64,000 nucleotides of DNA, from assembly GCA_023247725.1 (NCBI GenBank), contig JAHFFW010000004.1:19921-83920 (forward strand), written 5' to 3'. Below the pieces are notes generated by a model. It saw only the letters and a program-made list of their open reading frames with translations. It searched no databases and had not been told where the DNA came from. The number at the start of each line of letters is the position of its first letter. Positions within the stretch are counted from its first letter, which is position 1. The DNA comes from Candidatus Omnitrophota bacterium (lineage in GTDB: Bacteria > Omnitrophota > Gorgyraeia > Zapsychrales > JAHFFX01). The translations under genes were made by a program, and so were the position numbers. Shown here in pieces: positions 250-41,767 of the stretch.

Positions 250-1287
250 ATGAAGACGCGTGCGGCCATCTTATATCAGCTAAATGCCCCCTTGGTCATT
301 GATGACATTGAGATCCCGGCTTTGCAGAAAGGGCAAGTCTTGGTCCGGATTTTGTACAGCGGGATCTGCCGGGCGCAGTGGAACGAAATGATCGGCCTTA
401 AAGGCCCGGATCGGTATTTGCCGCATTTGTTGGGACATGAGGGAGCGGCGATCGTGGAAGATTCAGGCCCCGGTGTGCATAAAGTCAAACCCGGAGATTA
501 CATCGCCTTGTCATGGATTAAAGGCGATGGGTTGGAAGCCCCGCGTTCTTTTTATCGACGGGGAAAAGAAGTCATTAATGCCGGAGCGGTTACGACCTTT
601 AGCGACTACGCGGTTGTTGCGGAAAACCGTTTAACTAAAATCTCGAAAAAAATCCCACCCAAGGTCGCGGCCATCATCGGTTGTGCCATTGTCACGGGTT
701 TTGGCATTGTTCATCATACCTTGCAGGTTAAAAAGGGAAACGCCATCGTGGTTTTGGGGGCCGGCGGAATTGGCGCGAGCGTCATCATGGCGGCGAGGCT
801 GGCTGGCTGTGCACAAATTCTTGCCCTCGATCCCGAGCCATGGAAACTCCAATTTGCCAAAAAGGTAGGCGCAACGCATGGAATTTTGTTTCGAGACAAT
901 AATCTTTTGGAAAAAATTCAAAAAATTGTTCCGCGGGGAGCGGATTACGCCATCGATGCATCCGGCAATAAAGCCGCCATGGAGCTGGGATTTGCCTGCA
1001 TTCATTCTCACGGCGTCATGGTCATTGCTGGAAATTTGGGAAAGGATGAAAAAATTTGTCTTCATCCTTTCGAATTGATCAAAGGCAAACGGATCGTCGG
1101 GACATGGGGAGGAGAAGCAATCCCGCAAAAGGATATTCCCTTTTATGTCAAAGAATATTGCGCCGGCCGACTTGCGCTTGGAAAACTCATCACCCATGAA
1201 TTTGATTTGGATCAAATCAATCAGGCCTTTAAGGTTCTTTGCGGCGGGAAGGCCGGCCGCATCGTTTTAAGAAACTCTGGGAGCTAG
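250..1287 (+). CDS. Zn-dependent medium-chain dehydrogenase/reductase (alcohol dehydrogenase family)
   Basis: GHEGAAIVE catalytic-zinc region and GAGGIGASV Rossmann loop; about 345 aa, typical for MDR enzymes. Confidence 0.8.
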   Translation: MKTRAAILYQLNAPLVIDDIEIPALQKGQVLVRILYSGICRAQWNEMIGLKGPDRYLPHLLGHEGAAIVEDSGPGVHKVKPGDYIALSWIKGDGLEAPRSFYRRGKEVINAGAVTTFSDYAVVAENRLTKISKKIPPKVAAIIGCAIVTGFGIVHHTLQVKKGNAIVVLGAGGIGASVIMAARLAGCAQILALDPEPWKLQFAKKVGATHGILFRDNNLLEKIQKIVPRGADYAIDASGNKAAMELGFACIHSHGVMVIAGNLGKDEKICLHPFELIKGKRIVGTWGGEAIPQKDIPFYVKEYCAGRLALGKLITHEFDLDQINQAFKVLCGGKAGRIVLRNSGS

Positions 1288-1298
1288 GCTCAACGTCT

Positions 1299-2270
1299 AT
1301 GGCGGAAAAATTATTAACCCATTCGCTTAAAAAAGATTTATTGGCCCAGATGATCCGCATCCGCCAGCTCGAGGAAAAGATTGTGGAGGTTTACGGCGAA
1401 GGCCACATGCGCACGCCTTCGCACCTTTCGATCGGACAGGAGGCCGTATCCGTTGGGGTTTGCCAGGTGCTCAAAGAGGGTGATCAAATCTTTGCATCCC
1501 ACCGCTGTCATGCGGCGTTTTTGGCCAGGGGCGGAACGACCGAAAGTTTTTTTGCCGAATTATGCGGCCGAGCCGCCGGCAGCAATAACGGTCGCGGCGG
1601 TTCGGCCCATTTGGCCTTTGCTTCGGGGGGAATGTATGCATCTCCTATTCTGGGCGCGATGATTCCCGTCGCTGTCGGCGCGGCTTTGGCTGCGGCCATG
1701 GATCACTCGAAACAGATCTCGGTCGCCTTTTTAGGGGATGCGGCTATTGAAGAAGGCGTCTTTGCCGAAAGCCTCAATTTTGCCATCATCAAAAAGCTTC
1801 CTGTTTTCTTTGTCTGTGAAAACAATCTGTATTCGACCCATGCGCATATCCGCGACCGTCAACCGGCCTGCGCCATTTACCGTCGGGTGGCCGGGCAGGG
1901 GATTGCAACCAAACAGCTCGACGGCAATGATGTGGAAAAGGTTTATACCAGTGCGCTCGCCGCAATACAGGCCTGCCGCAGGGGCACGGGGCCGGTTTTT
2001 TTGGAATATCTGACCTATCGCTATCGGGAGCACGTTGGTCCTTTGTATGATTACGACAAGGGGTACCGCACGAAAAAGGAAGTGGAGGCTTGGCAAAAAA
2101 AATGCCCGATTGAAGCTTATCGAAAAAAATTGATTAGACAGAAAATATCGACGGAACAAGAATTTATCAGACTACAACAACAATTTTCACAAGAAGCCGA
2201 ACGAGCTTATCGGAAGGCCTTAGAAAGTCCATTCCCCGAGCCGGCCACCCTTTTGGATCACGTTTATTAG
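1299..2270 (+). CDS. ThDP-dependent 2-oxoacid dehydrogenase E1 alpha-subunit homolog (PDH/acetoin-DH E1-alpha-like)
   Basis: SIGQEAVSVG and FLGDAAIEEG (GDG ThDP-binding) motifs. The track ORF begins at 1239, but the ATG at 1299 lies just after the upstream stop. Confidence 0.8.
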   Translation: MAEKLLTHSLKKDLLAQMIRIRQLEEKIVEVYGEGHMRTPSHLSIGQEAVSVGVCQVLKEGDQIFASHRCHAAFLARGGTTESFFAELCGRAAGSNNGRGGSAHLAFASGGMYASPILGAMIPVAVGAALAAAMDHSKQISVAFLGDAAIEEGVFAESLNFAIIKKLPVFFVCENNLYSTHAHIRDRQPACAIYRRVAGQGIATKQLDGNDVEKVYTSALAAIQACRRGTGPVFLEYLTYRYREHVGPLYDYDKGYRTKKEVEAWQKKCPIEAYRKKLIRQKISTEQEFIRLQQQFSQEAERAYRKALESPFPEPATLLDHVY

Positions 2271-7223: not shown

Positions 7224-7261
7224 TAATTGATAAGGTGGATGATTTCCTCAGCGTTTTGTAG

Positions 7262-7460: not shown

Positions 7461-7482
7461 TTTATTCGTAAGGATCAGATCA

Positions 7483-8991: not shown

Positions 8992-9036
8992 GTCTTGCTC
9001 ACGTTTTATCGATAACGAGCCTAAGCCGGCCGACCG

Positions 9037-12662: not shown

Positions 12663-12715
12663 AACCGGCGGTGGGATTCTTTTTCGATCAAGATTCGAAT
12701 CGGGAGGCATTTGAG

Positions 12716-12832
12716 ATGTTTACCCTTGAGGAGTCGAAATTACTCATTCGTTTGATCCGTTATGCCAAATGGCTCATCATCACCCTGATGCTCGCGGGAA
12801 CGGCCGTGTATCTCTGGAAACATTTTGGATGA
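12716..12832 (+). CDS. Small (38 aa) single-TM membrane protein, not in the ORF track
   Basis: ATG at 12716 preceded by GGGAGG 8 nt upstream. Translates to MFTLEESKLLIRLIRYAKWLIITLMLAGTAVYLWKHFG with a hydrophobic helix. Its TGA (12830-32) overlaps the ATG at 12829 of the next SDR (ATGA coupling). Confidence 0.4.
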   Translation: MFTLEESKLLIRLIRYAKWLIITLMLAGTAVYLWKHFG

Positions 12833-13662: not shown

Positions 13663-13678
13663 ATAGGATCATTTTACC

Positions 13679-15586: not shown

Positions 15587-15603
15587 AAAATCCGGGAGGC
15601 TTT

Positions 15604-15963
15604 ATGAATCATCGATGGTCGGGATGGGTCGATTTTATGGCAAGATGTTTTATCATCGCGTTCATGGTTTATTTGGCCTTGTCCGCTTTTTTTATTTCGG
15701 ATTTTAAAAAGCTCTCCCGGCTTTTGGATTCGGTGGAAAAAGAAATGCAGACCTTCACTCAGCAGAACAAAATCTATTCGACCTTTTTTACCACTGGAAA
15801 TCCAGAAATCCTTTATGTCATTGCCTTGCAAGATGAACAGAACGGCGATCTCGGTGGGGCCGCAAAGAAACTGTTGACGGCCATTCAAGTTTCGGATTTG
15901 AACAGCCAAAAATACCGCGCGAAGCTACAGGCACTTCTGGGAAAGTCCGGGCAGAATCCCTAA
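15604..15963 (+). CDS. Hypothetical small membrane protein
   Basis: One hydrophobic helix (FIIAFMVYLALSAFFI); no recognisable motif. Confidence 0.4.
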   Translation: MNHRWSGWVDFMARCFIIAFMVYLALSAFFISDFKKLSRLLDSVEKEMQTFTQQNKIYSTFFTTGNPEILYVIALQDEQNGDLGGAAKKLLTAIQVSDLNSQKYRAKLQALLGKSGQNP

Positions 15964-15974
15964 GTCTTCATTCC

Positions 15975-16316
15975 ATGTCATCCAGTTATGACGCGGTGAT
16001 TTCTTCTCTGGTCAAGGGTTTGCTTGATGATCAGGCGAATCCGGTCCTTGTTGAGCAAACCGCCCAACAGATGAGGAAAACTGTTCGACACATGCCGAGG
16101 CATCTGTCCCTGCCCATTATTTTTCTAACCCTTTGTTTTGATTGGGCGGGAATCTTGCGTGGAGGTCGAATCTTTCGATGTCAATCCGCTGTTTCTCAGC
16201 GGGCACAGATTGAAGATTGGAAAAAAAGTTTTTTATCGCCTTGTCGGGAGTTGATCCGTTTTCATGAAAAAATGAGCGGATTTATCTATTACTCCTATTC
16301 CCCGACGAAGAATTGA
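15975..16316 (+). CDS. Hypothetical protein
   Basis: ORF of 113 aa in an operon gap upstream of the GMC oxidoreductase; no motif recognised. Confidence 0.35.
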   Translation: MSSSYDAVISSLVKGLLDDQANPVLVEQTAQQMRKTVRHMPRHLSLPIIFLTLCFDWAGILRGGRIFRCQSAVSQRAQIEDWKKSFLSPCRELIRFHEKMSGFIYYSYSPTKN

Positions 16317-16341
16317 AAATGGCTTAAGGCTCTTTATTCCC

Positions 16342-17784
16342 ATGCTGCAGAATCGTTTAGATTGTGAGGTGCTCGTCGTCGGTTCCGGACCCGGCGGGGC
16401 CAATACCGCCTATCTATTGGCGCAAGCGGGCAAGGATGTAATCCTTGCCGAAGAAGGGGAGAATTTGACGGTTGAGCAAACCCCGGCCTATTCGCTGGAA
16501 GAAATGAAATCAAAATACCGTCATGGCGGTATGACGGTGGCCTTGGGCAAACCGAGCGTAGCCTATCTCGAGGGCTGCTGTGTCGGCGGAGGCAGTGAGA
16601 TCAATGCCGGTTTATACCACTATCCTTCACCGGAAGTTTTAGAAGAGTGGGTTAAAGATTTTGCTATTCGTGATTTTGGATTTGGGAAGCTGGAGCCTTT
16701 TTTCAAATCCTGTGAGCAAGATATTTCGGTTTCTTCCATGCCTGGTCAGGTGGGCTCAGCCTCTTTGAAGCTGCAGGAAGGAGCCCGCAAGCTCAATTGG
16801 AAAACTGCACAGATCCCTCGCTGCTGGAAATATGAATGTTTATCCGACGGAACCTGGCATTCTTCCCGGCAGTCGATGACCGAAACCATCATCCCCAAGG
16901 CCTTGCGTCATGGCTGCCGATTGCTGACGCGAGCTAAGGTCAAAAGACTTTGTTTGAAAAATCATCGAGCCGATCACGCCTTGGTGAGTTCCGTTACGAA
17001 AGCTGGTGAACAAAGTTTGACCACGATTAATTTTCGCCAGGTTTTCGTCTGTGGGGGCGCCGTGCAAACTCCGGCCCTTTTGAGGCGCAGCGGAATTAAG
17101 AAGAATATTGGCAATTCGCTGCGGATGCACCCGGCCATCCGGATGGTGGCAAAATTTTCCGAAGCAGTCAACGAAGAGCAAGAAGGCGTTCCGGTCGTTC
17201 AGGTGGAAGAATTCAAACCCCGTTTGACCCTGGGTGGATCTTACAGCGCCCTACCGCATCTGGCGTTGTGGTTAGGTCCACAGCGCATACAGAAGCTTCT
17301 TCCGGTTTGGAAAAATTTGGCCATGTTTTATGCGCTCATTGTCGGTCAAGGAGCTGGAACCGTAAGAAATATTCCCTGGACGGATGAGCCCTGGGTTCGC
17401 ATGCCTCTGACCAGGACGGATGCCAGTTCTTTCCGGGAAGGTTTAGAACTCTTGGGCCGTTTGCTATTTGCCGCTGGAGCGACGGAAATATTTCCACCGA
17501 TGCAGGGGTTGGAAATCTTAAAAACCCCAGACGATTTAAAAATATTCTTGGGCAACTTATCTTTGAATAAAATGGATATCTCGACGATTCATTTATTTAG
17601 CAGCTGTCCGATGGGAGAAAAGACAGAACTCTGCGCCGTGGATTCCTACGGAAAATTGCATGGCTTTAAGAATATTTATCTTAATGACGCGAGCATTTTG
17701 CCCAGCGCCCCCAGGGTGAACCCCCAGGCGCTCATCATGGCGATTGCCCGGCGAAATACAGCGAAATTTTTAGAAAATATTTGA
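16342..17784 (+). CDS. GMC-family FAD-dependent oxidoreductase
   Basis: VLVVGSGPGGANTA FAD-binding motif; GMC-like C-terminal region (PQALIMAIARR). Confidence 0.75.
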   Translation: MLQNRLDCEVLVVGSGPGGANTAYLLAQAGKDVILAEEGENLTVEQTPAYSLEEMKSKYRHGGMTVALGKPSVAYLEGCCVGGGSEINAGLYHYPSPEVLEEWVKDFAIRDFGFGKLEPFFKSCEQDISVSSMPGQVGSASLKLQEGARKLNWKTAQIPRCWKYECLSDGTWHSSRQSMTETIIPKALRHGCRLLTRAKVKRLCLKNHRADHALVSSVTKAGEQSLTTINFRQVFVCGGAVQTPALLRRSGIKKNIGNSLRMHPAIRMVAKFSEAVNEEQEGVPVVQVEEFKPRLTLGGSYSALPHLALWLGPQRIQKLLPVWKNLAMFYALIVGQGAGTVRNIPWTDEPWVRMPLTRTDASSFREGLELLGRLLFAAGATEIFPPMQGLEILKTPDDLKIFLGNLSLNKMDISTIHLFSSCPMGEKTELCAVDSYGKLHGFKNIYLNDASILPSAPRVNPQALIMAIARRNTAKFLENI

Positions 17785-17870: not shown

Positions 17871-18908
17871 ATGGCAAGTCGAATGATTAGCTACGCGCAG
17901 GCCATCTCGGAAGCCACGGTTCAAGCCATGGAGGCTGATCCGAATGTTTTTGTGTTCGGCCTGGGGGTGGATGATTTTAAAGGAATTTTTAACACCACCA
18001 GAGAAGCCTTTGCGAAGTTTGGATCCTCCCGCGTCGTCGGAACTCCCGCAAGTGAAAATGCATTAACCGGCATCGCCATTGGAGCGGCCTTAAATGGGAA
18101 AAGGCCGATTCTGGTTCACGCCCGCAATGACTTTATGTTTCTGGCGCTCGACCAGATGCTCAATAATGCGGCCAAATGGAAATATTCTTATGCCGGACAA
18201 TCGAGCGTTCCGATCGTCGTGCGCGGGATCATCGGCAAGGGCTGGGGGCAGGGACCGACGCATTCCCAGAGCATTCAATCCATCTTTGCGCATTTTCCGG
18301 GGCTTTATGTCGCCATGCCGTCGGGCGCGTATGTGGCCAAAGGATTGCTGATAAAAAGCCTGCAGATCGATACGCCGGTTGTGCTCCTCGAGCACCGGGC
18401 TCTTTATGATCTCAAGGAAGCAGTTCCGGAAAAATCCTACACTTTGGATTTTGGCAAGGCACGGGTTGTTCGCCTTGGGAGAGACATCACGATCGTTGCG
18501 ACATCCTTCATGGTTCCGGAGGCGGTTAAGGCGGCTGACATTCTTCAATCCCAAGGGATTGATCCGGAGATCATCGATCCGGTCAGTCTTAATCCGCTGG
18601 ATGAAGAAACCATTCTCAACTCAGTTGCTAAAACCGGACGGTTGCTGTGCGCCGACACGAGCTGGCGGCGTTGCGGCTTCGCCGCGGAAGTCGCGGCCAT
18701 CGTCGCCGAGAAAAGTTTTGGTTCGCTCAAGGGACCGGTCAAAAGGATCACCCTTGCGGATTGCCCGTGTCCGGTTTCACAAAAACTAGAAGCAGAATTC
18801 TATCCCAGCTTCCAAACGATCGTGAATTCGGTTTATGCCATGTTGGACCGAAAAGAAAAATTTCAAATGGAAAGTCCCAAAGCCGACGTGTTTATTGGAC
18901 CCTATTGA
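17871..18908 (+). CDS. ThDP-dependent 2-oxoacid dehydrogenase E1 beta-subunit homolog (transketolase-like pyrimidine-binding and C-terminal domains)
   Basis: MEADPNVFVFGLGVDD, GIAIGAALNGKRP, typical PDH-E1-beta layout; about 345 aa. Confidence 0.85.
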   Translation: MASRMISYAQAISEATVQAMEADPNVFVFGLGVDDFKGIFNTTREAFAKFGSSRVVGTPASENALTGIAIGAALNGKRPILVHARNDFMFLALDQMLNNAAKWKYSYAGQSSVPIVVRGIIGKGWGQGPTHSQSIQSIFAHFPGLYVAMPSGAYVAKGLLIKSLQIDTPVVLLEHRALYDLKEAVPEKSYTLDFGKARVVRLGRDITIVATSFMVPEAVKAADILQSQGIDPEIIDPVSLNPLDEETILNSVAKTGRLLCADTSWRRCGFAAEVAAIVAEKSFGSLKGPVKRITLADCPCPVSQKLEAEFYPSFQTIVNSVYAMLDRKEKFQMESPKADVFIGPY

Positions 18909-18947
18909 TCGCACGAACTTTATTACCGCAAAATTGAACTCATCAAA

Positions 18948-19625
18948 ATGCCTAAGCGTCCATTGACTCAAAAGGAGGCTTATAAAGCGGGAACAGACCA
19001 CCAGTTTGTTGACTCCATTGAGCTGGGTCCATGGACATCGTACAGTCTTTTGCATGACCCCAAACATATGTGCTTTGCCCTGTCCCGGTACAAATTTTGT
19101 GCAAAGGTATTGGAGGGAAAGGCCAACGTTCTGGAGGTGGGCTGCGGGGATGCCTTTGGGATTCCCATCGTGGCCCAGGCGGTGCAGCGGGTGGTGGCGG
19201 TGGACCCGGAGGACCGGCTGATCCGTTCCAATAAAAAAAGATTGAGGGGCATAAAGAACATTGAATTTCAAAGGCTTGATATCTGTGAAGAAGTTCCTAA
19301 AGAAATTTTTGCTGCTACGTTTTCCGTGGACGTCATTGAGCATCTGGATGCTCATTTGAACGGTGCTTTTATGCGCCATCAGTGTGAGTGTCTGCATCCC
19401 GACGGCATTTGCATCGTGGGGACCCCCAACATCACCGCCGGAAAATATGCCACGCCCCGCAGTCGGATCGAACACATCAATCTCAAAAGTCATGAGGCCC
19501 TGCGCGAGCAGATGGGAACATACTTTAAGAATGTCTTTATGTTTTCCATGAATGATGAAGTCGTGCATACCGGATTTGCGCCCATGGCGCATTATCTCTT
19601 TGGTGTCGGGATGGGTCTGAAATGA
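18948..19625 (+). CDS. Class I SAM-dependent methyltransferase (paralog A)
   Basis: VLEVGCGDAFG motif I; about 60% identical by eye to the ORF at 23346. Confidence 0.7.
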   Translation: MPKRPLTQKEAYKAGTDHQFVDSIELGPWTSYSLLHDPKHMCFALSRYKFCAKVLEGKANVLEVGCGDAFGIPIVAQAVQRVVAVDPEDRLIRSNKKRLRGIKNIEFQRLDICEEVPKEIFAATFSVDVIEHLDAHLNGAFMRHQCECLHPDGICIVGTPNITAGKYATPRSRIEHINLKSHEALREQMGTYFKNVFMFSMNDEVVHTGFAPMAHYLFGVGMGLK

Positions 19626-20833
19626 AAAGCCAGACCAAGGCAGAATACAAAGTTGTGGCCAGGCGCGAATCCTGCGCAATCTGTCATTCGTCGGACCTTG
19701 CGGTTTTGCTGGATCATCCCGGGCTCCCTTTGACGGGAATTTTTTCCCAGAAACCGATGGAGGAACAGCCCAGCGGCATCGACCAGCAATTCCTATTTTG
19801 TTCAGCCTGCGGCCATGGGCAATTGGCCTTTGCCGTGGATCCATCCCACCTTTATGACGAGACTTATATTTTTCGCACCTCCTTAAGTGCCACGGCCCGG
19901 GCCGGGACAGATTTTTTTCTGAATTTTTTGAAATCCATCCGGCCGCAATTGGATTTTCAATGCGCCCTCGATATCGGGTGCAATGACCTGTATTTGTTAA
20001 AACAATTGCAGGATAAAGTCCCAATCCGCGTCGGGATCGATCCCATGTGGGCGGCGCAGCCCCTTCCGGATCACACCGAAGGGATTGGGCTCATCGGCGG
20101 GACGCTAGAGGAAGCCGATGTGATGGGGGCCACTCACCGACGGCCTGACCTCGTGGTCTGCCGTCACACCCTCGAACATATTTTTGATCCCCGGCAAATG
20201 CTGGAAAAACTCGTCTCCATAACCTCCGATCAAACCCTTTTTGTTTTTGAATTGCCGGGATTGGACACGCTCATGGAGCGTTCGCGATTTGACCAGATTT
20301 TTCACCAGCATTTGCAATATTTCTCTTTGCACTCGCTTTGCGGGCTGATGCGGCTGTTCAATTTGCATCTGATCGATTACCAAATCCATTATCATGACTG
20401 GGGAGCCATGGCGGTGGCCTTTTCCAAACAAGGACGATCTGCCAGGGAACAAGATCCCCCTTTTCGGTTCGATATCCGCGTCATGAAGGATCGGTTTAAA
20501 ATTTTTCAGCAGCATCTGCAACGCGTGGGCCGGATTCTCGATTCCTTTAAGGATTCGGTGATCTATGGGTATGGGGCCTCTGCCATGTTGCCGATCCTCG
20601 CTTACCATATGCAGCACGATCTCGGTCTTTTGCAGGCTGTCCTTGATGATGATATCCGTCGGGCTGGACTTTATTATGCGAATCTACCGCTCAGGATTCA
20701 CCACCCCAGCGAAGTCAAAAATTTCACTGAAACCAATATTTTTCTAACCGCCGTTGATTCGGTGGAGCCGATTTTGACGAAGTTAATGGCCAGCCGGCCC
20801 AAAAATATTATCTTTCCTTTGGAGGCGATGTGA
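19622..20833 (+). CDS. NDP-sugar C-methyltransferase, TcaB9/TylCIII-like, with N-terminal zinc-ribbon domain
   Basis: CAICHS...CSACGHG four-Cys N-terminal domain, DIGCNDLYLL methyltransferase motif, C-terminal extension typical of this C-methyltransferase family. Confidence 0.65.
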   Translation: MKSQTKAEYKVVARRESCAICHSSDLAVLLDHPGLPLTGIFSQKPMEEQPSGIDQQFLFCSACGHGQLAFAVDPSHLYDETYIFRTSLSATARAGTDFFLNFLKSIRPQLDFQCALDIGCNDLYLLKQLQDKVPIRVGIDPMWAAQPLPDHTEGIGLIGGTLEEADVMGATHRRPDLVVCRHTLEHIFDPRQMLEKLVSITSDQTLFVFELPGLDTLMERSRFDQIFHQHLQYFSLHSLCGLMRLFNLHLIDYQIHYHDWGAMAVAFSKQGRSAREQDPPFRFDIRVMKDRFKIFQQHLQRVGRILDSFKDSVIYGYGASAMLPILAYHMQHDLGLLQAVLDDDIRRAGLYYANLPLRIHHPSEVKNFTETNIFLTAVDSVEPILTKLMASRPKNIIFPLEAM

Positions 20834-21612
20834 TGGAATTGGGTATCCGCGGAAAAAAGGCTCTCGTGACCGGATCCGGGCGTGGCATCGGTCAGGCCAT
20901 TGCCTTGGCGCTGGCTCAGGAAGGCGCCAAGGTTGCGGTTGTGGCCCGCACAAAGAATGACATTGACCGGCTCATGCAACAGATGGCAGGAGGTAAGACC
21001 GGTCATTGTGGTGTGAGTTTGGATCTGACGGTCGAAGGTGCACCGAAAAAGTTGGTCCAGGTTTTGAAAACAAGGGATTTTCCTTCCTTTGATATCGTCG
21101 TACATAACCTGGGAAGTGCTCTCGACATTCGCGATCCATTCTGTTCGCTGGACCAATGGCGGCAGGTCATGCGGATCAATTTTGAAATCGCCGTGGAATT
21201 GAATCTTTTGTTAATCCCGGCCATGCAGAAAAAAAGGTGGGGACGGGTCGTCCATATTTCGTCCATTGCGGCCATGGAAAATCAGGGGCCGGTGACGTAT
21301 TGCGCGGCCAAGGCGGCCTTGACGGCTTACACGCGCAGTATGGGTGGTGTTGTTGCTCCCGACGGGGTTGTGATGTCCGCGGTTTTGCCCGGGGCTGTCT
21401 TTACGGAAAAAGGTTATTGGGATATCGCCTCCCGAACGAATCCGAACCATGTGAGAAAATTCCTCACTGAACGCCAGCGCATTGGGCGCTTTGGCGAGCC
21501 GCAGGAGATTGCCCATTTTGTCACCTTTTTGTGTTCGGACTTGGCCTCCTTCAACACCGGGGCGATTGTTCCCGTCGATGGGGGACAGGGGAGAGGTTAT
21601 TTTGGGCAATAG
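20830..21612 (+). CDS. SDR-family oxidoreductase
   Basis: ALVTGSGRGIGQAIA, YCAAK motifs. Confidence 0.8.
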   Translation: MMELGIRGKKALVTGSGRGIGQAIALALAQEGAKVAVVARTKNDIDRLMQQMAGGKTGHCGVSLDLTVEGAPKKLVQVLKTRDFPSFDIVVHNLGSALDIRDPFCSLDQWRQVMRINFEIAVELNLLLIPAMQKKRWGRVVHISSIAAMENQGPVTYCAAKAALTAYTRSMGGVVAPDGVVMSAVLPGAVFTEKGYWDIASRTNPNHVRKFLTERQRIGRFGEPQEIAHFVTFLCSDLASFNTGAIVPVDGGQGRGYFGQ

Positions 21613-22414
21613 GGTTGTTCCACCAAAAGAGGAATGGCAAATCCATAACGCGTATCGCCGCCGGATCGTGGACATGGTCTGCGAAGGAAAGGATGGCCAT
21701 ATCCCGAGCGCCTTCTCCATTATTGATATCATCGCCGTCCTTTATCAATATTATTTAAAATTTGATGCGAAGAATCCCGCCTGGGAAAAGCGGGATTATT
21801 TCATTTTGAGCAAGGGCCACGGGTGCCTGGCCCTTTACGTTGTCTTGAAAGAACATGGCTTTTTGACCGAAAACGATTTGAATGGATTCTGCCAGCCCGA
21901 CGGAATTTTGGGCGAACACCCCGATGCAACGAAGGTTCCGGGAGTGGAGCTCTCCACCGGTTCGCTGGGCCATGGCTTTTCCATGGCGGTGGGAATGGCC
22001 TTAGGTTTACGCATCCAAAATAGGAATAACCGGTTGTTTGTTTTGGTCGGCGACGGGGAATGTCACGAAGGAACCGTGTGGGAAGCGGCGAATGTCGCCA
22101 ATAATTTGCAGCTGGGAAATCTTTGTGTCGTCGTCGACTGGAATGGTTCGGCCGCACAACTCATGCCGCGCGATGATCTGCCGGCCAAATGGAAGGCCTT
22201 CGGCTGGGAAACCCACGTCATCGACGGCCATTCCGTGACCGAATTACGCCAGGCCTTGGACCGAATTGCTTTTAAAAGTGTGGGAACCCCGACCGTGATT
22301 GTCGCTAAGACGATCAAAGGAAAAGGCGTTCCCTTGTTAGAAGGTCACGGGACCTGGCATCACCGGATTCCTAAACCCGACGAGTACAAGATCATCATGG
22401 AGGCCTTGGCGTGA
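21602..22414 (+). CDS. Transketolase N-terminal (ThDP-binding) subunit of a split transketolase
   Basis: SKGHGCLALY, GSLGHGFSMAVGMA, VGDGECHEGTVWEA (GDG ThDP motif). No in-frame ATG near the 5' end. The TTG at 21602 preceded by GGGAGAGG is proposed; the track ORF starts at 21482 inside the SDR. Confidence 0.75.
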   Translation: MGNRVVPPKEEWQIHNAYRRRIVDMVCEGKDGHIPSAFSIIDIIAVLYQYYLKFDAKNPAWEKRDYFILSKGHGCLALYVVLKEHGFLTENDLNGFCQPDGILGEHPDATKVPGVELSTGSLGHGFSMAVGMALGLRIQNRNNRLFVLVGDGECHEGTVWEAANVANNLQLGNLCVVVDWNGSAAQLMPRDDLPAKWKAFGWETHVIDGHSVTELRQALDRIAFKSVGTPTVIVAKTIKGKGVPLLEGHGTWHHRIPKPDEYKIIMEALA

Positions 22415-23343
22415 GCGCCTCACCCATTCGTGATCAATTCGCCCAAACGATGCTGGAGGTCGGAGCCGCTGATTCGGATCTTGTGGTTTTGGTGGGTGAC
22501 ATCAGCCATTTCAAATTGCAGCCTTTTGCGCAAGCGTGCCCCGGGCGGTTTTATAACATCGGAATTTGTGAACCCACCATGGTCAGCATGGCCGCGGGCC
22601 TGGCCAAGGTCGGGCTTATTCCGGTCGCTCATACCATTGCCCCTTTTTTGTTGGAACGTTCCTTTGAGCAGATCAAACTGGATTTTGGGTATCACCAATT
22701 GGGAGGAAACCTCATCACCGTCGGAAGCGCCTTTGATTATGCGAATCTGGGATGCACCCATCACTGCTACGATGATTTTGCCTTACTGGGAAATCTTCCC
22801 GGAACCCAACTTTTTTATCCGGGAAGCGCTGTGGAATTTGATACCCTTTTTCGCCAAGTCTATCGCAGGGGCCGTCTCAATCTTTTTCGTCTTCCGGCCA
22901 TCGCGCATCAACAAACCTGGAACAACGATGACATTATCCCGGGAAAGGCCATCCTGGTTCAGGAGGGAAGTGATTTGACGATTATCACCACCGGCCCTCA
23001 TCTGACAACGGCCTTGGCTGCGCAAGATGAGTTGCGCCAAAAGGGATTTCATCCCGAAATCATTTATATTCACACCATCGTTCCTCTTGACCGGGATCAA
23101 TTGTTAGCCAGCGTGCAAAAGACGCGCCGCATTCTCGTCGTGGAGGAACACGTCTTTCATGGCGGGTTGTCCAGTCGGGTGTTGGAACTGGTCCGCGGCA
23201 TTCGGGATTTACAATTTTCAAGTTTATGTCTGTCCAACGAATTTGCCACCCACTATGGTTCGTACGAGGATCAATGCCGGCGCGTTGGTCTGACGAAGGA
23301 AGGGATCCTTCGTCATGTCTTGGAAAAATTTTCTAAAAACTAG
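22411..23343 (+). CDS. Transketolase C-terminal (pyrimidine-binding) subunit
   Basis: VGDISHFKL, GICEPTMVSMAAGLA motifs; the start overlaps the stop of the N-terminal subunit gene. Confidence 0.8.
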   Translation: MSASPIRDQFAQTMLEVGAADSDLVVLVGDISHFKLQPFAQACPGRFYNIGICEPTMVSMAAGLAKVGLIPVAHTIAPFLLERSFEQIKLDFGYHQLGGNLITVGSAFDYANLGCTHHCYDDFALLGNLPGTQLFYPGSAVEFDTLFRQVYRRGRLNLFRLPAIAHQQTWNNDDIIPGKAILVQEGSDLTIITTGPHLTTALAAQDELRQKGFHPEIIYIHTIVPLDRDQLLASVQKTRRILVVEEHVFHGGLSSRVLELVRGIRDLQFSSLCLSNEFATHYGSYEDQCRRVGLTKEGILRHVLEKFSKN

Positions 23344-23345
23344 CG

Positions 23346-24038
23346 ATGCCAAAACCAAAGACCAAAGAGGCGCAAAATCAATTCCAATTCGACCATTACC
23401 GTGGGAAGGGACCCGTCGGGCTTGGTCCCTGGAGCAGTCATAGCTGGCGGGACGATCCAAAGCACATTGGGTTTACGCTGGCCCGGTACAAGTTTTGCGC
23501 CAAAATGCTTCATGGCAAAAAAGAAGTTCTGGAAATCGGATGCGGCGATGCCTTTGGAACCCCCATCATTTTGGAATCCGCTCGAAGGATTCATGCCGTC
23601 GATTTTGAGCCGCTCATTGTGGCTGATGCCCGGGCCCGCTATCGAAAAGAAGGAATGGGCCCGATCACTTTTTCAGTTGAGGACCTCACGGTGCGGCCGG
23701 TTCCCGGAAGTTTTGATGCGGTCTATTCGCTCGATGTTCTGGAACACATTCCGCAAAGAAAAGAAAGTCGTTTTATGAACAATATCGTTGCGAGTTTGAA
23801 ACCTGATGCGGTTTGTATTCTAGGAACCCCGAATAAAGAGGCCCGACGATTTGCCAGCAAAGCGAGCCAAGAAGGCCACGTCAATTTAAAAACCGCCCAG
23901 ACCTTAAGAATGCTCCTGATGCGTTATTTTAAGAATGCCCTGATTTTTTCCATGAATGATGAAATCGTGCATACCGGTTATTACCCGATGGCTCATTATT
24001 TATTGGGAATGGGTGTTGGGTTAAGGGCGCTATCATGA
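23346..24038 (+). CDS. Class I SAM-dependent methyltransferase (paralog B of 18948..19625)
   Basis: VLEIGCGDAFG; shared DPKH, ARYKFCAK and C-terminal FSMNDE(I/V)VHTG...PMAHYL blocks. Confidence 0.7.
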   Translation: MPKPKTKEAQNQFQFDHYRGKGPVGLGPWSSHSWRDDPKHIGFTLARYKFCAKMLHGKKEVLEIGCGDAFGTPIILESARRIHAVDFEPLIVADARARYRKEGMGPITFSVEDLTVRPVPGSFDAVYSLDVLEHIPQRKESRFMNNIVASLKPDAVCILGTPNKEARRFASKASQEGHVNLKTAQTLRMLLMRYFKNALIFSMNDEIVHTGYYPMAHYLLGMGVGLRALS

Positions 24039-24790
24039 CGGCGATGGACAAAAGTCTAACGGTTGTTGTCCCTGCCTTTAACGAGGAACAAAATATCCTC
24101 TCGGCCATTGAAAATGTAAAGGGTGCTTTGGAAGGGATGGACTGGGAAATCATTGTGGTCAATGACGGAAGCTCGGATCAAACCGGTTCTTTGGCGGAAA
24201 AAAAGGCCAAGACCGATGCGCGGGTCCGGGTCGTCCATAATGAAAAAAATCTCGGCTACGGACACGCCTTTCAGCGGGGGGTGGGGTTGGCCACGCGTTC
24301 TTACATTGGAATATTCCCCGGCGATAACGATATGTCGGCAAAATCCCTGCTCGATTTGGTGGAAAACATCGGCGACGCGGACATGATCACGGCCTATATG
24401 TCCGATAGCAAGAGGCGACCTTGGGGCCGGCGATGTCTTTCGCGTTTATTTGTTTTCTTGTTGAGCGTGCTTTTCGGGTTGCCGCTCAAATATTACAACG
24501 GTCCGTTCATTTGCCGGCGGGGATTATTACAATCCTTAGCCATCAAATCGGAGGGGCTGACGGCTTTGGCGGAGTGCAAAATTCGCCTGCTGAAAATGGG
24601 ATGCACCTATAAAGAAATCCGTTTTGACCATACTGGCCGCCAGGCCGGGCGTTCCAGCGCGCTGCGATGGAAAAGCATCAAACAGACTTTAAGAAATGTT
24701 GCCATCCTTTTTAAAGACATTTATCTGACTCCTCGGGTTCTTCAACAAGAACCGGGCAGATCAACATGGAAGAACGCATTAAAACAATAA
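24035..24790 (+). CDS. GT2 polyprenyl-phosphate glycosyltransferase (DPM1/CsbB/GtrB-like)
   Basis: VVVPAFNEE, VVNDGSSD, GYGHAF and C-terminal amphipathic region; paralogous to 30804..31526. Confidence 0.8.
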   Translation: MTAMDKSLTVVVPAFNEEQNILSAIENVKGALEGMDWEIIVVNDGSSDQTGSLAEKKAKTDARVRVVHNEKNLGYGHAFQRGVGLATRSYIGIFPGDNDMSAKSLLDLVENIGDADMITAYMSDSKRRPWGRRCLSRLFVFLLSVLFGLPLKYYNGPFICRRGLLQSLAIKSEGLTALAECKIRLLKMGCTYKEIRFDHTGRQAGRSSALRWKSIKQTLRNVAILFKDIYLTPRVLQQEPGRSTWKNALKQ

Positions 24791-24802
24791 AACCGGAGTA
24801 TT

Positions 24803-25318
24803 GTGTTCTATCTTCTTGCCAGTTGGTTTTTTTTTAGTTTGGCGGTTATCGCTCATATTGTTTGGTCGCGGAAAACAAGAAATCCATCCCGCTGGCTTGC
24901 GATGTTTTGCTTCATTGCTCTCATCATGCTTTGCGGGGATGTCGTCTTCGCTGGAATTTTTAGCCACGTTGTCGGAAACAATAGCCCTGGAGTAGCCACA
25001 TTGCCCCTCTACGGAACGGCGATTGTTTTTTATGTGATGTTGGTGCCCGTCTATACCTTGTTATATTTTGCCATGCTGACGGACAGTCCCTCGAAAATGA
25101 TTCTCAAGAAACTGCAAGCCGAGGGAACTTCGACCTATGAAGATTTATTGAAGCTCCTGACTTATGAAGAGGTTATTTCGCCGCGGTTGCAGGATCTTGA
25201 GGCCGGTGGCTTCATTCGTCGGGAAAACGATCAATATTGGCTTTTGCGTCGAGGGCACGGGGTGGCGAAATTGATTTCGCTTTGCCAAAAAATTTGCAAC
25301 CGGGGATTGGGAGGATAG
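24803..25318 (+). CDS. Small membrane protein with a C-terminal winged-helix-like domain (paralog 1)
   Basis: Two or three N-terminal hydrophobic helices, then YEDLLKLLTYEEVISPRLQDLEAGGFIRRENDQYWLLRRGHG resembling a wHTH recognition helix plus wing. Confidence 0.5.
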   Translation: MFYLLASWFFFSLAVIAHIVWSRKTRNPSRWLAMFCFIALIMLCGDVVFAGIFSHVVGNNSPGVATLPLYGTAIVFYVMLVPVYTLLYFAMLTDSPSKMILKKLQAEGTSTYEDLLKLLTYEEVISPRLQDLEAGGFIRRENDQYWLLRRGHGVAKLISLCQKICNRGLGG

Positions 25319-25330
25319 TCAAAAAAGAAC

Positions 25331-25897
25331 ATGTTCAGTATTTTTGATCAATTCATTTTGGTGATGGCAGGGCTTTCTTGCCTTTTCTTCATTGCGATTC
25401 AAGTCCTGGTGTTTCGTTTTATCGGTGCTGCCGGGGTCTTAAAGTGGCTTATGAACGTTTATTGGATCAGCACGATTTTGGGAGAAGGATTGACCATCTT
25501 TTTTGCCCGGAACGTATCGGCCTTCCATGGACGAGGACCGGCAGAGCTCGTGATCGTCTTTTTGGTATCCTTTATCCTTTACAGTTTAATGGCTTTTTTG
25601 TATGTCTTATTTATTTTGGGTCCTTACGAATCATCGGTCCGGTTACGGATTGTTCAGGAGATGGATCGCTATTATCCCAAAGGCTGCTCATTGGCGGCGC
25701 TTTTGCAGGCGTATAATACGGAAATTATTTTAAAACGCCGTTTAGGTCGCTTAATGGAGGCAGGAGATATATCCTACGACGGGCATTTATATCATCTTAA
25801 AAAGGAAATCAATCTCTTTTTGGTGACCGATCGAATGGTCGCCCAACTGAATGAATTCATCAATGGTCCTAAGGGCGATCAAAAGCAGTCCTTGTGA
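25331..25897 (+). CDS. Small membrane protein with a C-terminal winged-helix-like domain (paralog 2)
   Basis: Same architecture as 24803..25318 (TM helices, then LAALLQAYNTEIILKRRLGRLMEAGDISYDGHLYHLKK). Confidence 0.5.
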   Translation: MFSIFDQFILVMAGLSCLFFIAIQVLVFRFIGAAGVLKWLMNVYWISTILGEGLTIFFARNVSAFHGRGPAELVIVFLVSFILYSLMAFLYVLFILGPYESSVRLRIVQEMDRYYPKGCSLAALLQAYNTEIILKRRLGRLMEAGDISYDGHLYHLKKEINLFLVTDRMVAQLNEFINGPKGDQKQSL

Positions 25898-27974
25898 GAG
25901 AACCCCGAACCGGTCTTCGCTAATGCTTTTTATCGTTCCGGTTGCCTTCTGGCTCTTTTTGTTCCGTGATCTGGTCACGGCCAGGGCCTTTATTATCGGG
26001 GATTCCTTTAGCGTCTATTGTGTCGTGAAATTTTTTCTCGATTCCTTGCAGGAAGCGGTTTTTCCCTTGTGGGATCCTTTCTTAAATTTCGGTGAACCCT
26101 ATATACGGCATTTCGGTGAATTCAACCCCATCCTTATCCTCGTCGGAATTCTTTCGAAAACGGGGCTTTCCTTTTATCCGTCATTCTTGACGGCGTTTAT
26201 TATTTATTTTCTGTTGGGTGTGGCTGGCTTTTATTGGTTAGCCCTGCGGATTTTCCAAGATAAGGCGGCGGCGTATTTTTGTTTTGTGCTGCTTTTATTT
26301 TCTTCACTGGGCATGAACATCTTCAACCAAATCACCATTGTCTTGATCTATGTCCCCGTTGTCTGGTTTTTTTATTTTCTTTTGTGCTTTTACGAAAGCC
26401 CCGGGCATCGGGATTTTATGGGATGCGTGTTGACTTTATCAATGATTATCACGACGTATATTCCTTTTTATTTCTTGACGGTTTTCTTATTCATGTTTTT
26501 GGGCGTCGTTATTCTTTATCCTGCGGATGTGTCGGATTTTATTCGGAAATTAGCGGATTTTTTCCGCCCAAAAGCGATCTTTTGTTTTATCGGAGCGATC
26601 GTCCTGGCAATATCCCTAATGAGCGCCTGGTTCAATTACCGGTTGCTCAATTCGGATTTGAATGTTCCGGTTTGGCACTCGGCCACCCAGGCTTCCGCGG
26701 GCCTAGCCTTTGATTATGAACAACAAGCCACCAACGGAGCCATTCAAATTCCCTTGGGCAGGGGAATCTTTTCAGCTTCATTAATAGATATTCCTTACAG
26801 CAACGAGCGATTTTTTTATGTCCCGTTCTTTGTTTATCTGACGGTTTTGGCATTTCCCTGGACCCGCGCCAACCGGCGTATGGTGCTCTTCACGGGCGCA
26901 GGATTATTGCTTTTTTTTATCTGTTTAACCAAGGCTACGCCAGTTTATCCATTTTTCTTCAGGCATGTCTTTTATTTCAAATTATTCCGAAATTTGCATT
27001 TGTTCATTCCTTTTATCAGCTCCCTGCTGATTCTTTTGGCGGCCGAGCAATTGTCGGCTTTTTTTCAAATGGTTCAAGTCCATGGTAAAAAGTTTTGGGG
27101 TTATGGGTGGATTATTTTCTTTCATGCTGCCATTTTCGTTTTTTTATTGCGGCAGGAAGAAATTCTTTTAACGACTTTTTTGACGCTCCTGGTCAGTTTG
27201 GTATTTTTTTTGTTGGCGTGGGGTCGGCTTTTAACCCTCCGGAATGCCTGGACGCCCTGGGTGCTTTTACTGGCGATCATTTTGCAGCCCGTCGAGGTTC
27301 TCTGGGCTTTTCAAGACAAGGCCAAAAGTCATCACACGCCCATTATTGCCCGCGGTCTGCAGGCAGAAACCCGGCGCAGTGTTTTTTCCTATACGAGGCC
27401 GATGCCGAACGTCGTTGCAACTGACGTTGAGGATTACAATCTGTATTACAGTTATTTGGCCTTACGTGAAAATTCGCCGGTTTCCCCTTATCGTTATGGT
27501 TATCCGCCGCGTTGGTCGTATGAGCTTTCGCAAAATCTTGATCCTTTGACAGCCAAACTTCTTAGAAACCGTTTGCTCATTTTTAATTCTTCTCAAGAAG
27601 CAAGGATTTTGGGACTCGGGGCAGGCAGGTCCATCTGGGAGGGGTCGCAGGAAGTGCGCATCCTTCGCTTTGATCCAAACAAATTGATTCTCCAAACCCA
27701 TTTCTTAACGGAACAATTTTTTGTTCTGACGGATAGCTATCATCCGTTTTGGCGGGCCTGGATCAACGAAAAAGAGGTCCCCATCGAGCGTGCCCTGGGA
27801 GCCTTCCGAGGAATCAGGCTTCCTTGCGGACCCCAGGTGCTGCGATTGAAATATCAACCATGGGGAGCGGAAATTTTTCCCTGGATCACGATGATGATTC
27901 TGTGGTTAACCTTTGCGGATCTCCTGTATCTTTCTTGGAAAGGATTTCGTGGACGCAACCTTCGATCAGCATGA
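25851..27974 (+). CDS. YfhO-like GT-C-type polytopic membrane glycosyltransferase candidate
   Basis: More than 10 predicted TM helices. C-terminus SYHPFWRAWINEKEVPIERALGAFRGIRLPCGPQVLRLKYQPWG + TM matches the YfhO C-terminal signature and ORF 3058. The start is uncertain (25851, 25863 or 25923). Confidence 0.55.
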   Translation: MNSSMVLRAIKSSPCERTPNRSSLMLFIVPVAFWLFLFRDLVTARAFIIGDSFSVYCVVKFFLDSLQEAVFPLWDPFLNFGEPYIRHFGEFNPILILVGILSKTGLSFYPSFLTAFIIYFLLGVAGFYWLALRIFQDKAAAYFCFVLLLFSSLGMNIFNQITIVLIYVPVVWFFYFLLCFYESPGHRDFMGCVLTLSMIITTYIPFYFLTVFLFMFLGVVILYPADVSDFIRKLADFFRPKAIFCFIGAIVLAISLMSAWFNYRLLNSDLNVPVWHSATQASAGLAFDYEQQATNGAIQIPLGRGIFSASLIDIPYSNERFFYVPFFVYLTVLAFPWTRANRRMVLFTGAGLLLFFICLTKATPVYPFFFRHVFYFKLFRNLHLFIPFISSLLILLAAEQLSAFFQMVQVHGKKFWGYGWIIFFHAAIFVFLLRQEEILLTTFLTLLVSLVFFLLAWGRLLTLRNAWTPWVLLLAIILQPVEVLWAFQDKAKSHHTPIIARGLQAETRRSVFSYTRPMPNVVATDVEDYNLYYSYLALRENSPVSPYRYGYPPRWSYELSQNLDPLTAKLLRNRLLIFNSSQEARILGLGAGRSIWEGSQEVRILRFDPNKLILQTHFLTEQFFVLTDSYHPFWRAWINEKEVPIERALGAFRGIRLPCGPQVLRLKYQPWGAEIFPWITMMILWLTFADLLYLSWKGFRGRNLRSA

Positions 27975-29797: not shown

Positions 29798-30790
29798 ATG
29801 AAGCGTAAAATCCTGGTCATCGGCAGCAATTCTTTTTCGGGAAGCGATTTTATTGATTTGCTTCTAGAAAATTCCGGCAACGATGTTATTGGAATGAGCC
29901 GCTCACCGGAGAAGAGTGAGGTGTTTTTGCCTTATCGGCGCCATGCCAAACCCCAGTTTCAATTTTTTCGGTTGGATCTGAACAAAGACATGTCCCGGAT
30001 TAAGGAACTGGTGGATTCGTTTAAACCGCATTATGTCGTTAATTTCGCGGCTCAAAGTGAAGTGGGGCCAAGCTGGAAGTCTCCGTGGGATTGGTTCCAA
30101 ACCAATACGGTCGCCTTATCCCGCCTCATCGATCACCTCAAAGAAAAAAGCTTCCTCAAAAAATATATTCATATTTCCAGTCCGGAAATCTACGGGAACT
30201 GCCAGGGACTCGTCAAAGAGGATTATCGTTTAAATCCCAGCACCCCGTATGCCGTCTCCAAGGCGGGGGCCGATCTGCTTCTTCTCGCATATTTTAGGAA
30301 TTACCGGTTTCCATTGGTCATTATTCGTTCCACCAATGTTTACGGAGCCCACCAGCAGTTATTCAAAATTTTTCCACGCGCCGTGATCCGGATCAAGTCC
30401 GGACAAAAATTGGAATTGCATGGTGGCGGCCAGGCCGTGAAATCCTATATTCATGTCCGCGATATTTCCCGGGGAGAGCTTTTGGCCTTAGAAAAGGGCC
30501 GCGTCGGAGAAACCTATCATCTTTCGCCAAAAGAGGGAATGTTGGTCCGTGATCTTGTTCGCAGGATCTGCCAGCGGATGGGTGCGAATTTTGAGAGAGC
30601 GACCGTCCCTGTTTCAGAACGTCTGGGGCAGGATCAGGCCTATGTCATTGACTCCACCAAAGCCCACACCGAGCTGGGGTGGAGCCCGCAGGTGTCTTTA
30701 GACCAAGGGATTGATCAAGTGATCGCATGGGTCAACCAGTTCTGGAAGCAGATCCAAAAACTGCCCTTGGAATATCATCACAAACCCTGA
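29798..30790 (+). CDS. NAD-dependent epimerase/dehydratase family (extended SDR; NDP-sugar dehydratase/epimerase-like)
   Basis: ILVIGSNSFSGSD Rossmann motif, YAVSKAGAD catalytic YxxxK; about 330 aa. Confidence 0.8.
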   Translation: MKRKILVIGSNSFSGSDFIDLLLENSGNDVIGMSRSPEKSEVFLPYRRHAKPQFQFFRLDLNKDMSRIKELVDSFKPHYVVNFAAQSEVGPSWKSPWDWFQTNTVALSRLIDHLKEKSFLKKYIHISSPEIYGNCQGLVKEDYRLNPSTPYAVSKAGADLLLLAYFRNYRFPLVIIRSTNVYGAHQQLFKIFPRAVIRIKSGQKLELHGGGQAVKSYIHVRDISRGELLALEKGRVGETYHLSPKEGMLVRDLVRRICQRMGANFERATVPVSERLGQDQAYVIDSTKAHTELGWSPQVSLDQGIDQVIAWVNQFWKQIQKLPLEYHHKP

Positions 30791-40945: not shown

Positions 40946-40948
40946 GTC

Positions 40949-41764: not shown

Positions 41765-41767
41765 TTC

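Follow-up and report, generated by a model that had tools for sequence, protein, structure and literature searches.

A variant family of TcaB9/MtmC-like methyltransferases in a cross-phylum gene cassette that probably builds a carbon-branched surface sugar

The stretch of DNA considered here, hereinafter the window, comprises 64,000 nucleotides of contig JAHFFW010000004.1 from a Candidatus Omnitrophota bacterium (assembly GCA_023247725.1). Its gene at 19622–20833, hereinafter the target, codes for a three-domain S-adenosylmethionine (SAM)-dependent methyltransferase that is a structural and sequence homolog of the TcaB9-type sugar C-methyltransferases over all three domains and a constant member of a gene cassette conserved across phyla. 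We place it in a new variant family related to TcaB9, MtmC and KijD1 and do not consider it an ortholog of TcaB9 or TylCIII. With moderate confidence, we propose from its sequence and context that it is a C-methyltransferase of the TcaB9/MtmC/KijD1 type, albeit from a separate family, which acts in a branched-sugar pathway; the cassette as a whole probably builds a multiply carbon-branched surface sugar.

A phmmer search of all PDB sequences with the target protein recovers MtmC (E 7e-21), TcaB9 (E 1e-13) and KijD1 (E 2e-10), with the next match only at E 0.07. These are the three C-methyltransferases of known structure found in this analysis, and all of them are actinomycete enzymes, namely the D-mycarose 3-C-methyltransferase MtmC of Streptomyces argillaceus (PDB 4RV9/4RVD), TcaB9 of Micromonospora chalcea (PDB 3NDI, 4E2W–4E33) and KijD1 of Actinomadura kijaniata (PDB 5T64/5T67). 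An AlphaFold2 model of the target built on 119 homologs (predicted local distance difference test score, pLDDT, 92.1; predicted template-modeling score, pTM, 0.90) gives the same picture in a Foldseek search of the PDB: the top 18 matches are chains of these three enzymes, with template-modeling (TM) scores of 0.73–0.80 over about 400–420 aligned columns and E-values from 1e-26 to 1e-20. The best of them is again MtmC (E 1e-26, TM 0.79, 419 columns), and TcaB9 and KijD1 match the full-length fold with TM scores of 0.74–0.78. No other structure matches along the full length, the remaining hits being confined to the Rossmann core with a TM score of about 0.35. Concordantly, the profile of the target family matches TcaB9 with E 1e-30, its positions 14–386 falling on TcaB9 chain residues 13–395 and thus traversing all three domains.

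The preliminary description of this locus had recognized an open reading frame (ORF) with a CxxC…CxxC zinc-binding domain, a methyltransferase core and a C-terminal extension of the C-methyltransferase type, and each of these elements stands. The two cysteine pairs (C18-x-x-C21 and C60-x-x-C63) are retained in the homologs; the core is matched by PF13489 with 58 bits against a gathering score of 27 (E 1e-15, residues 111–251); and the extension, in both the Foldseek alignments and the family profile, is a domain common to the known C-methyltransferases, to which it is homologous but divergent. The zinc-binding model PF08421 is matched by all 119 family members examined at E ≤ 0.01.

The TcaB9 residues probed by mutagenesis can be read from the titles of its PDB entries and from differences between the entry sequences (Y76F, H181N, Y222F, E224Q and H225N), where the chain index equals the residue number plus 2 owing to a GHM tag. 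We mapped them onto 120 close homologs of the target, 133 diverse representatives at 50% identity and 120 TcaB9-like actinomycete proteins. The four zinc cysteines of the target align with those of MtmC and with Cys13, Cys16, Cys54 and Cys57 of TcaB9, each being present in 119–120 of the 120 close homologs and 122–127 of the 133 diverse ones. Tyr76 of TcaB9 corresponds to Y82 (120/120 close, 129/133 diverse), while H186 and H230, the counterparts of His181 and His225, occur in every sequence of both sets. The D-x-G-C-N-D form of SAM motif I (D117, G119, C120, N121 and D122) is invariant in the family, as are the G-Y-G-A stretch and the position of Asp348 in the C-terminal domain; TcaB9 additionally shares Asp219, Gln220 and Y-G-A (323–325) with the target. 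Like the target, MtmC combines a Cys4 ribbon, the SAM core and the C-terminal domain, and it too has a histidine where TcaB9 has Asp223 (I-Y-H-E-H in MtmC, I-F-H-Q-H in the target); this residue, H228, is found in 120/120 close homologs and 121/133 diverse ones. In the phmmer search, the Y76F, H181N and H225N mutant chains of TcaB9 score below the wild type against the target.

The target belongs to a large, separate and uncharacterized branch with an altered active site. A word-indexed sequence search returned more than 600 relatives; among the 120 matches listed, identity to the target is 42–63% over the full length, the source organisms are Omnitrophota, Nitrospirota, Planctomycetota, Chloroflexota, Desulfobacterota and others, and the names are purely generic ("methyltransferase domain-containing protein", "SAM-dependent methyltransferase", "hypothetical protein"). 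An exhaustive profile search yielded 760 clusters at 50% identity with E ≤ 1e-30, a limit that we estimate at about 130 bits in the library searched; since the solved enzymes score 92–122 bits against the same profile, they fall outside this set. Scanning one genome per GTDB species, we recovered 79 loci, nearly all in metagenome-assembled genomes (MAGs), with the best match 48% identical to the target; the sources include Patescibacteria, Chlamydiota, Elusimicrobiota, Verrucomicrobiota, Bdellovibrionota, Woesearchaeota and a Methanomicrobia MAG. In 72,556 plasmids searched by tblastn, there were distant relatives only, at 21–25% identity, and no family member. To our knowledge, all characterized sugar C-methyltransferases of this fold come from actinomycete antibiotic pathways. 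No description of the family or of its cassette was found in the searchable literature, where absence is no proof of absence.

In the window, the target lies in a tight block of same-strand genes (18948–24790) that either overlap by 1–35 nt or stand 2 nt apart. At its start, the target shares 4 nt with the stop of the preceding gene, which codes for a small class I methyltransferase (MT225), and its stop codon overlaps by 1 nt the start of a gene for a FabG-like short-chain dehydrogenase/reductase (SDR). The SDR is followed by a transketolase split into an N-terminal, thiamine diphosphate (ThDP)-binding subunit (TK-N) and a C-terminal subunit (TK-C), and then by a second small methyltransferase (MT230). 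We assessed the conservation of this arrangement both by searching the window proteins against the 79 loci and by clustering all ORFs of the loci de novo, with the same picture emerging from the two approaches. The counts below refer to the 38 (38–40) loci in which the target homolog is flanked by 8 kb or more on either side; Patescibacteria and Woesearchaeota are among the more than 15 phyla that these loci span.

The most constant partner is the SDR, present in 35 of 38 loci (35–38 of 38–40) and, with a mean identity of 59%, better conserved than the target itself (39%). It is followed in frequency by a subunit resembling the E1 beta chain of pyruvate dehydrogenase (PDH; 30 loci, or 30–32 of 38–40), a 220-aa methyltransferase (29), a second epimerase-like gene (27), the matching E1 alpha subunit (26), a zinc-dependent alcohol dehydrogenase (ADH; 26, or 26–27 of 38–40, 40–61% identity), a nucleoside diphosphate (NDP)-sugar 4,6-dehydratase-like enzyme (23, or 23–26 of 38–40, 45–64% identity), a two-domain HldE-like protein with swapped domain order (23), the split transketolase pair (21–22), a GmhA-like isomerase (17), a YerE-like ThDP enzyme (15) and methyltransferases of the MT225/230 type (13). 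TK-N is found in 21–26 of 38–40 loci with a mean identity of 63% and is always followed by TK-C. Of the 69 loci whose upstream sequence is long enough, 34 have E1 beta in the orientation of the target and no more than 2.6 kb ahead of it, 18 of them as its immediate neighbor. Thus, the usual core order is the target, the SDR, and then either TK-N and TK-C (type A, where the pair directly follows the SDR) or the YerE-like enzyme (type B), with E1 alpha and E1 beta preceding it in most loci. The window holds a type A cassette with both MT225 and MT230.

The transketolase pair and the YerE-like enzyme are almost mutually exclusive: 36 of 38 loci have one or the other, usually directly after the SDR, and only one has both. 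As they almost never co-occur in that place, they suggest two non-homologous solutions for a single carbon–carbon-bond-forming step. The alternation can be followed in loci L044 (10001–17568), L030 and L073, among others in the range L007–L085; type B cassettes often insert genes for DmpF/DmpG-like acetaldehyde dehydrogenase and aldolase. A cassette of type B is also present in a culturable organism, Opitutaceae bacterium MBA3-11 (locus L083).

There is precedent for ThDP enzymes in sugar branching: the E1 alpha/beta-like pairs AviB1/AviB2 and Pau11/Pau12, as well as YerE, are proposed or shown to install two-carbon branches on 4-keto sugars, upon which a ketoreductase acts (PMC4753412). The window cluster resembles the AviB1/B2 and Pau11/12 pathways (the latter with the ketoreductase Pau7) in having a PDH E1 alpha/beta pair in a sugar cluster alongside reductases, and type B cassettes resemble the yersiniose pathway in having an acetolactate-synthase-like ThDP enzyme. 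Unlike these pathways, the cassette joins to the E1 pair another ThDP enzyme (a split transketolase or one like YerE), an enzyme of the C-methyltransferase fold and, in many cases, heptose-activation genes; moreover, the reductase adjoining the target is an SDR of the FabG type. Taken with the dehydratase, these precedents make the cassette look like a route to a C-methyl sugar with up to two ThDP-derived carbon units.

The fold, the homology of the domains, the conserved residues, the operon structure and the conservation of the cassette are direct results of the analysis, from which we infer a scheme for the substrate, the methylated carbon, the succession of steps, the nucleotide and the product. 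The reaction would most likely be the methylation of a nucleotide-activated sugar at a carbon adjacent to a keto group. The 4,6-dehydratase-like enzyme, which resembles RmlB and could supply a 4-keto sugar, would probably generate the substrate; this would bind in the space between the SAM and C-terminal domains, the latter serving as the substrate handle and the zinc ribbon having a structural role. His230 (TcaB9 His225) might then take a proton from the carbon next to the keto group, with His186 and Tyr82 (TcaB9 His181 and Tyr76) stabilizing the enolate, whose carbon would receive the methyl group from SAM. The translationally coupled SDR could thereafter act on a keto group, while further carbon units would come from the ThDP chemistry of E1 alpha/beta and the split transketolase, and further methyl groups from the small methyltransferases. 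Finally, the family 2 glycosyltransferases (GT2) and YfhO-type proteins would probably move the finished sugar onto a surface polymer; the presence of GT2 and YfhO-like membrane proteins in the window suggests delivery to an extracytoplasmic acceptor.

Several observations weigh against this assignment and are gathered in the following three paragraphs. The identity of the target to the solved enzymes in the Foldseek alignments is as low as 18–23% (22–23% for MtmC, 18–21% for TcaB9 and KijD1). Both signature Pfam domains fall short of their gathering scores: PF08421 reaches 29.9 bits instead of 31.3 (E 6.6e-7, with the whole model, 1–62 of 62, aligned), and PF08484 reaches 16.7 instead of 23.5 (E 0.0064, a partial match over positions 63–144 of 160), the latter being recognized at E ≤ 0.01 in 71 of 119 family members as compared to 120 of 120 TcaB9-like proteins (precomputed matches). 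The sole NCBIfam match of the target is BioC at 20.7 bits, far below the cutoff. In the active site, Tyr222 of TcaB9 is replaced by F227 (Phe in 118/120 close homologs and 115/133 diverse ones) and Glu224 by Q229 (92 Gln and 28 Glu among the close homologs; 103 Gln, 21 His and 5 Glu among the diverse ones), whereas the TcaB9-like proteins retain Tyr222 in 119/120 and Glu224 in 120/120, and MtmC and KijD1 likewise have Tyr and Glu. The Y222F and E224Q mutant chains of TcaB9 score slightly above the wild type against the target, unlike those of the other three mutants. More generally, at 50 positions where the TcaB9-like clade is invariant, the target family has another, likewise conserved residue. 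Because these two active-site positions, the lysine loop discussed below and the Pfam thresholds all speak against orthology, the TcaB9/TylCIII-like identity given in the preliminary description holds as to the fold and homology across three domains but not as to orthology. Similarly, of the features by which TcaB9-type enzymes were to be recognized, the two Pfam profiles do match, albeit below threshold, and the zinc ligands and the equivalents of Tyr76, His181 and His225 are in place, while Tyr222 and Glu224 are not. The loss of two of the five probed residues, in a cluster with several further methyltransferases, among them two B12-radical SAM enzymes (one KedN5-type), would also fit an O- or N-methyltransferase or a dead scaffold retaining the C-methyltransferase fold. 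We regard this as very improbable: the SAM motif and the equivalents of His225, His181 and Tyr76 are invariant in about 250 sequences, although a dead scaffold would lose them, and the replacements are themselves conserved (Phe in 118/120, His228 in 120/120), implying selection on an active site.

A further discrepancy concerns the C-terminal loop, which reads G-Y-G-A-S-A-M-L-P in the target as against G-Y-G-A-T-A-K-S-A in TcaB9. Its lysine (Lys328 of TcaB9, also found in KijD1 and in the G-Y-G-A-P-A-K of MtmC) is a methionine in 120/120 family members, and Ser329 is a leucine in 118/120. In addition, Thr326 is replaced by serine in the target and by alanine in most of the family, and D342-D343-D344 stands where TcaB9 has D-T-T, so that Thr350 is replaced by Asp. 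The lysine presumably takes part in nucleotide binding; as it is replaced by Met, the nucleotide end of the substrate may be held differently and may be other than deoxythymidine diphosphate (dTDP). MtmC, by comparison, acts on a dTDP-deoxysugar in an antibiotic pathway. Given Phe227, Gln229 and the remodeled loop, neither 3-C regiochemistry nor a dTDP substrate is to be assumed for the target. Furthermore, no nucleotidyltransferase gene was found in the window cluster or in the 10 kb upstream. One could therefore envisage a substrate other than a nucleotide sugar, with the ThDP enzymes being fed by the methylation of a 2-oxo acid in free form, of a ketose phosphate, or of an intermediate bound to a lipid or carrier; this would also agree with the constant partners being ThDP enzymes that use oxo-acid or ketose donors, and with the DmpF/DmpG-like enzymes of type B cassettes, which make or use small oxo acids. 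Yet the whole C-terminal domain is kept, with its G-Y-G-A and Asp348 positions invariant, and dehydratase- or epimerase-like NDP-sugar enzymes accompany the target in 23–27 of 38 loci, along with HldE-like (23/38) and GmhA-like (17/38) proteins, which renders such a substrate improbable.

The gene order E1 alpha, E1 beta, target, SDR, finally, fits equally well with the methylation of a side chain, and this is the main alternative. Here, the fold and chemistry would be the same but the nucleophile different: the target would act on a side chain just attached by E1 alpha/beta, methylating the carbon that adjoins its ketone and thereby converting, for instance, an acetyl to a propionyl-type branch, and the adjacent SDR would reduce that ketone. 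This order is the commonest one, the SDR is translationally coupled to the target, and the replacement of the sugar-contacting Tyr222 and Glu224, together with the altered nucleotide-side loop, looks as if the substrate sat differently. However, the order of reactions need not match the order of genes, and 5 of the 38 fully flanked loci have the target and a transketolase pair but no E1 beta within 8–10 kb. Moreover, we know of no enzyme of this fold that methylates such a side chain, and on balance we consider the alternative unlikely, though it deserves to be taken seriously. As the cluster holds both a 4,6-dehydratase-like gene and ThDP enzymes, a C-branched sugar pathway is the best reading.

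Many of the related loci additionally point to a heptose precursor by virtue of their divergent HldE- and GmhA-like genes and a GT9-like gene. Both HldE domains are present in these proteins, as in the canonical ADP-heptose activation pathway, but with the nucleotidyltransferase first and the kinase second (e.g., locus L054, 3075–4607, followed by a divergent GmhA-like isomerase at 4615–5214), and the scores are well below the NCBIfam cutoffs (139 vs. 345, 89 vs. 181.5 and 101.5 vs. 276). These genes look like a dedicated heptose-type activation route unrelated to lipopolysaccharide. No heptose-activation genes occur in the window cluster; unlike the related loci, the window has only a canonical ADP-heptose 6-epimerase, HldD (51286–52254; TIGR02197, 369 bits, above cutoff), from which it follows that the organism makes ADP-heptose.

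The two small methyltransferases flanking the core were previously described as paralogs of about 60% identity that, with the intervening SDR and split transketolase, betoken a duplicated methylation step around a C-branched sugar pathway. The coordinates of both genes and the identity of those between them are confirmed, and a C-branched sugar pathway remains the best interpretation. The measured identity of MT225 and MT230 is, however, 45% (64% similarity, E 1e-70 in pairwise alignment). The SDR and split transketolase, moreover, are not incidental: they make up the cross-phylum cassette together with the E1 alpha/beta pair, which had been overlooked, E1 beta lying just upstream of the target block and E1 alpha farther away. 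MT225 has its nearest relatives in a Planctomycetales MAG (the upstream methyltransferase, 66% identity) and in a Chlamydiae MAG (49%), while the closest relative of MT230, a common accessory of the cassette with orthologs at 50–61% identity in 23 loci, is a Nitrospirota ortholog (61%). As each is closer to orthologs in other phyla (66% and 61%) than to its neighbor, the sequences indicate that they are old paralogs, two lineages of one family, and not the result of local duplication; the idea of a recent tandem duplication is rejected in view of a neighbor-joining tree together with these identities. None of the 26 other loci carrying this family has a second copy. Their best PDB matches are phosphoethanolamine N-methyltransferases (E 2e-6), with no close solved relative, and our guess would be that they perform O-methylation.

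Table 1. Domains of the target and features of the surrounding cluster (positions in the window)
Feature	Position	Strand	Description
Target methyltransferase gene	19622..20833	+	403 aa, ATG start; three-domain SAM-dependent methyltransferase, divergent F-H-Q-H family
N-terminal Cys4 zinc-ribbon domain	19673..19855	+	residues 18–78; Cys18, Cys21, Cys60, Cys63
Class I SAM-binding core and catalytic region	19952..20374	+	PF13489; motif I D117-I-G-C-N-D122
C-terminal alpha/beta domain	20474..20830	+	residues ~285–403; homologous to C-methyltransferase C-terminal domain
Zinc-dependent ADH	250..1287	+	ADH_N, ADH_zinc_N
PDH E1 alpha-like subunit	1299..2270	+	PF00676, 207 bits; TIGR03182, 279 bits
PDH E1 beta-like ThDP subunit	17883..18908	+	PF02779/PF02780; NF006667, 294 bits
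MT225, small class I methyltransferase	18948..19625	+	225 aa; Pfam Methyltransf_23/25/11
FabG-like classical SDR	20833..21612	+	259 aa; adh_short_C2, 144 bits
TK-N, ThDP-binding transketolase subunit	21578..22414	+	PF00456, 150 bits; NF004559, 232 bits
TK-C, transketolase subunit with pyrimidine-binding and C-terminal domains	22411..23343	+	PF02779, PF02780
MT230, small class I methyltransferase	23346..24038	+	230 aa; Pfam
GT2	24035..24790	+	Pfam
Protein with three transmembrane segments, first of pair	24803..25318	+	hydropathy
Protein with three transmembrane segments, second of pair	25331..25897	+	hydropathy
YfhO-like polytopic membrane protein	25851..27974	+	Pfam, hydropathy
NDP-sugar 4,6-dehydratase-like extended SDR	29798..30790	+	TIGR01181 (dTDP-glucose 4,6-dehydratase), 213 bits, below cutoff of 365

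An ORF of 412 codons with a TTG start runs antisense to MT225 and the target on the minus strand (18786–20024). Most likely it is a mere shadow of the plus-strand genes, which are strongly conserved, the plus-strand reading of the target region being backed by homologs at the E 1e-275 level.

About 4.6 kb of the cluster precede position 1 of the window and code for a radical SAM enzyme, a GT9-like protein, an epimerase-like protein and the 220-aa methyltransferase. The E1 alpha and E1 beta genes, which are adjacent in all other loci listed, are 15.6 kb apart in the window (Table 1). The region between them (2279–17784) codes for a methyltransferase, a YfhO-like membrane protein, a flavin adenine dinucleotide-dependent amine oxidase, two B12-radical SAM enzymes, three SDRs, an AsnB-type amidotransferase, two small ORFs and a glucose–methanol–choline oxidoreductase, and looks like a second modification module inserted into the cassette. 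One of the B12-binding radical SAM proteins (9037–11076, 679 aa) has its best match to the KedN5 family of methylcobalamin-dependent C-methyltransferases (168 bits, cutoff 700), for which reason the cluster may hold a second, radical route to C-methylation.

Downstream of the core, the paired proteins of 171 and 188 aa each combine three N-terminal hydrophobic segments with a soluble C-terminal part and have no Pfam match; together with the GT2 gene they recur in loci L047, L055 and L072, and they may be a flippase-like or regulatory pair of a glycosylation module. With this GT2 and the YfhO-like protein (24035–27974), they probably serve as a module for delivery. The window further codes for four large polytopic membrane proteins (3058–5823, 25851–27974, 31526–33652 and 34337–35989), two of them weakly YfhO-like and two with no Pfam match, each near a small GT2 (24035, 30804 and 33588), an arrangement that resembles parallel systems of lipid-carrier, flip-and-transfer glycosylation. 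Beyond the glycan cluster lie the glycogen genes (38918–50394), coding for a phosphorylase-like enzyme, GlgB, a glycoside hydrolase of family 57 with DUF3536 and the 4-alpha-glucanotransferase MalQ, among which are interspersed a thyA–folA pair (40949–42316) and an EAL-domain response regulator (42532–43728). The glycogen, thyA–folA and hldD genes are ordinary housekeeping genes.

Taken by itself, a gene of this type is unsurprising, but the phylum-spanning cassette around it is a concrete lead to new sugar chemistry. The target family constitutes a much larger and broader sister family of the actinomycete antibiotic-pathway enzymes, and its recognition, if confirmed, would provide an annotation rule for thousands of metagenomic genes. 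More tentatively, and as a possibility that we hold well short of conviction, the cassette could make an undescribed, heavily carbon-decorated higher sugar, probably heptose-derived and C-methylated, with two separately installed ThDP-derived carbon units. Such a sugar would be a unit of surface glycans, shared and exchanged by over 15 bacterial and archaeal phyla (Patescibacteria, Chlamydiota and Woesearchaeota among them). On this view, the target family would form a new class of sugar C-methyltransferases by function, having solved the active site in a manner of its own and using a nucleotide handle that is not dTDP. If confirmed, both the sugar and its enzymology would be new; the latter would extend to an active site naturally varied to Phe/Gln and to a transketolase that takes a sugar nucleotide as its substrate. 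With two different ThDP systems for carbon–carbon bonds, reductases and genes of heptose-type activation as its constant company, the target points to a pathway, as yet unexplored, by which mostly uncultured microbes build multiply branched sugars for their surfaces.

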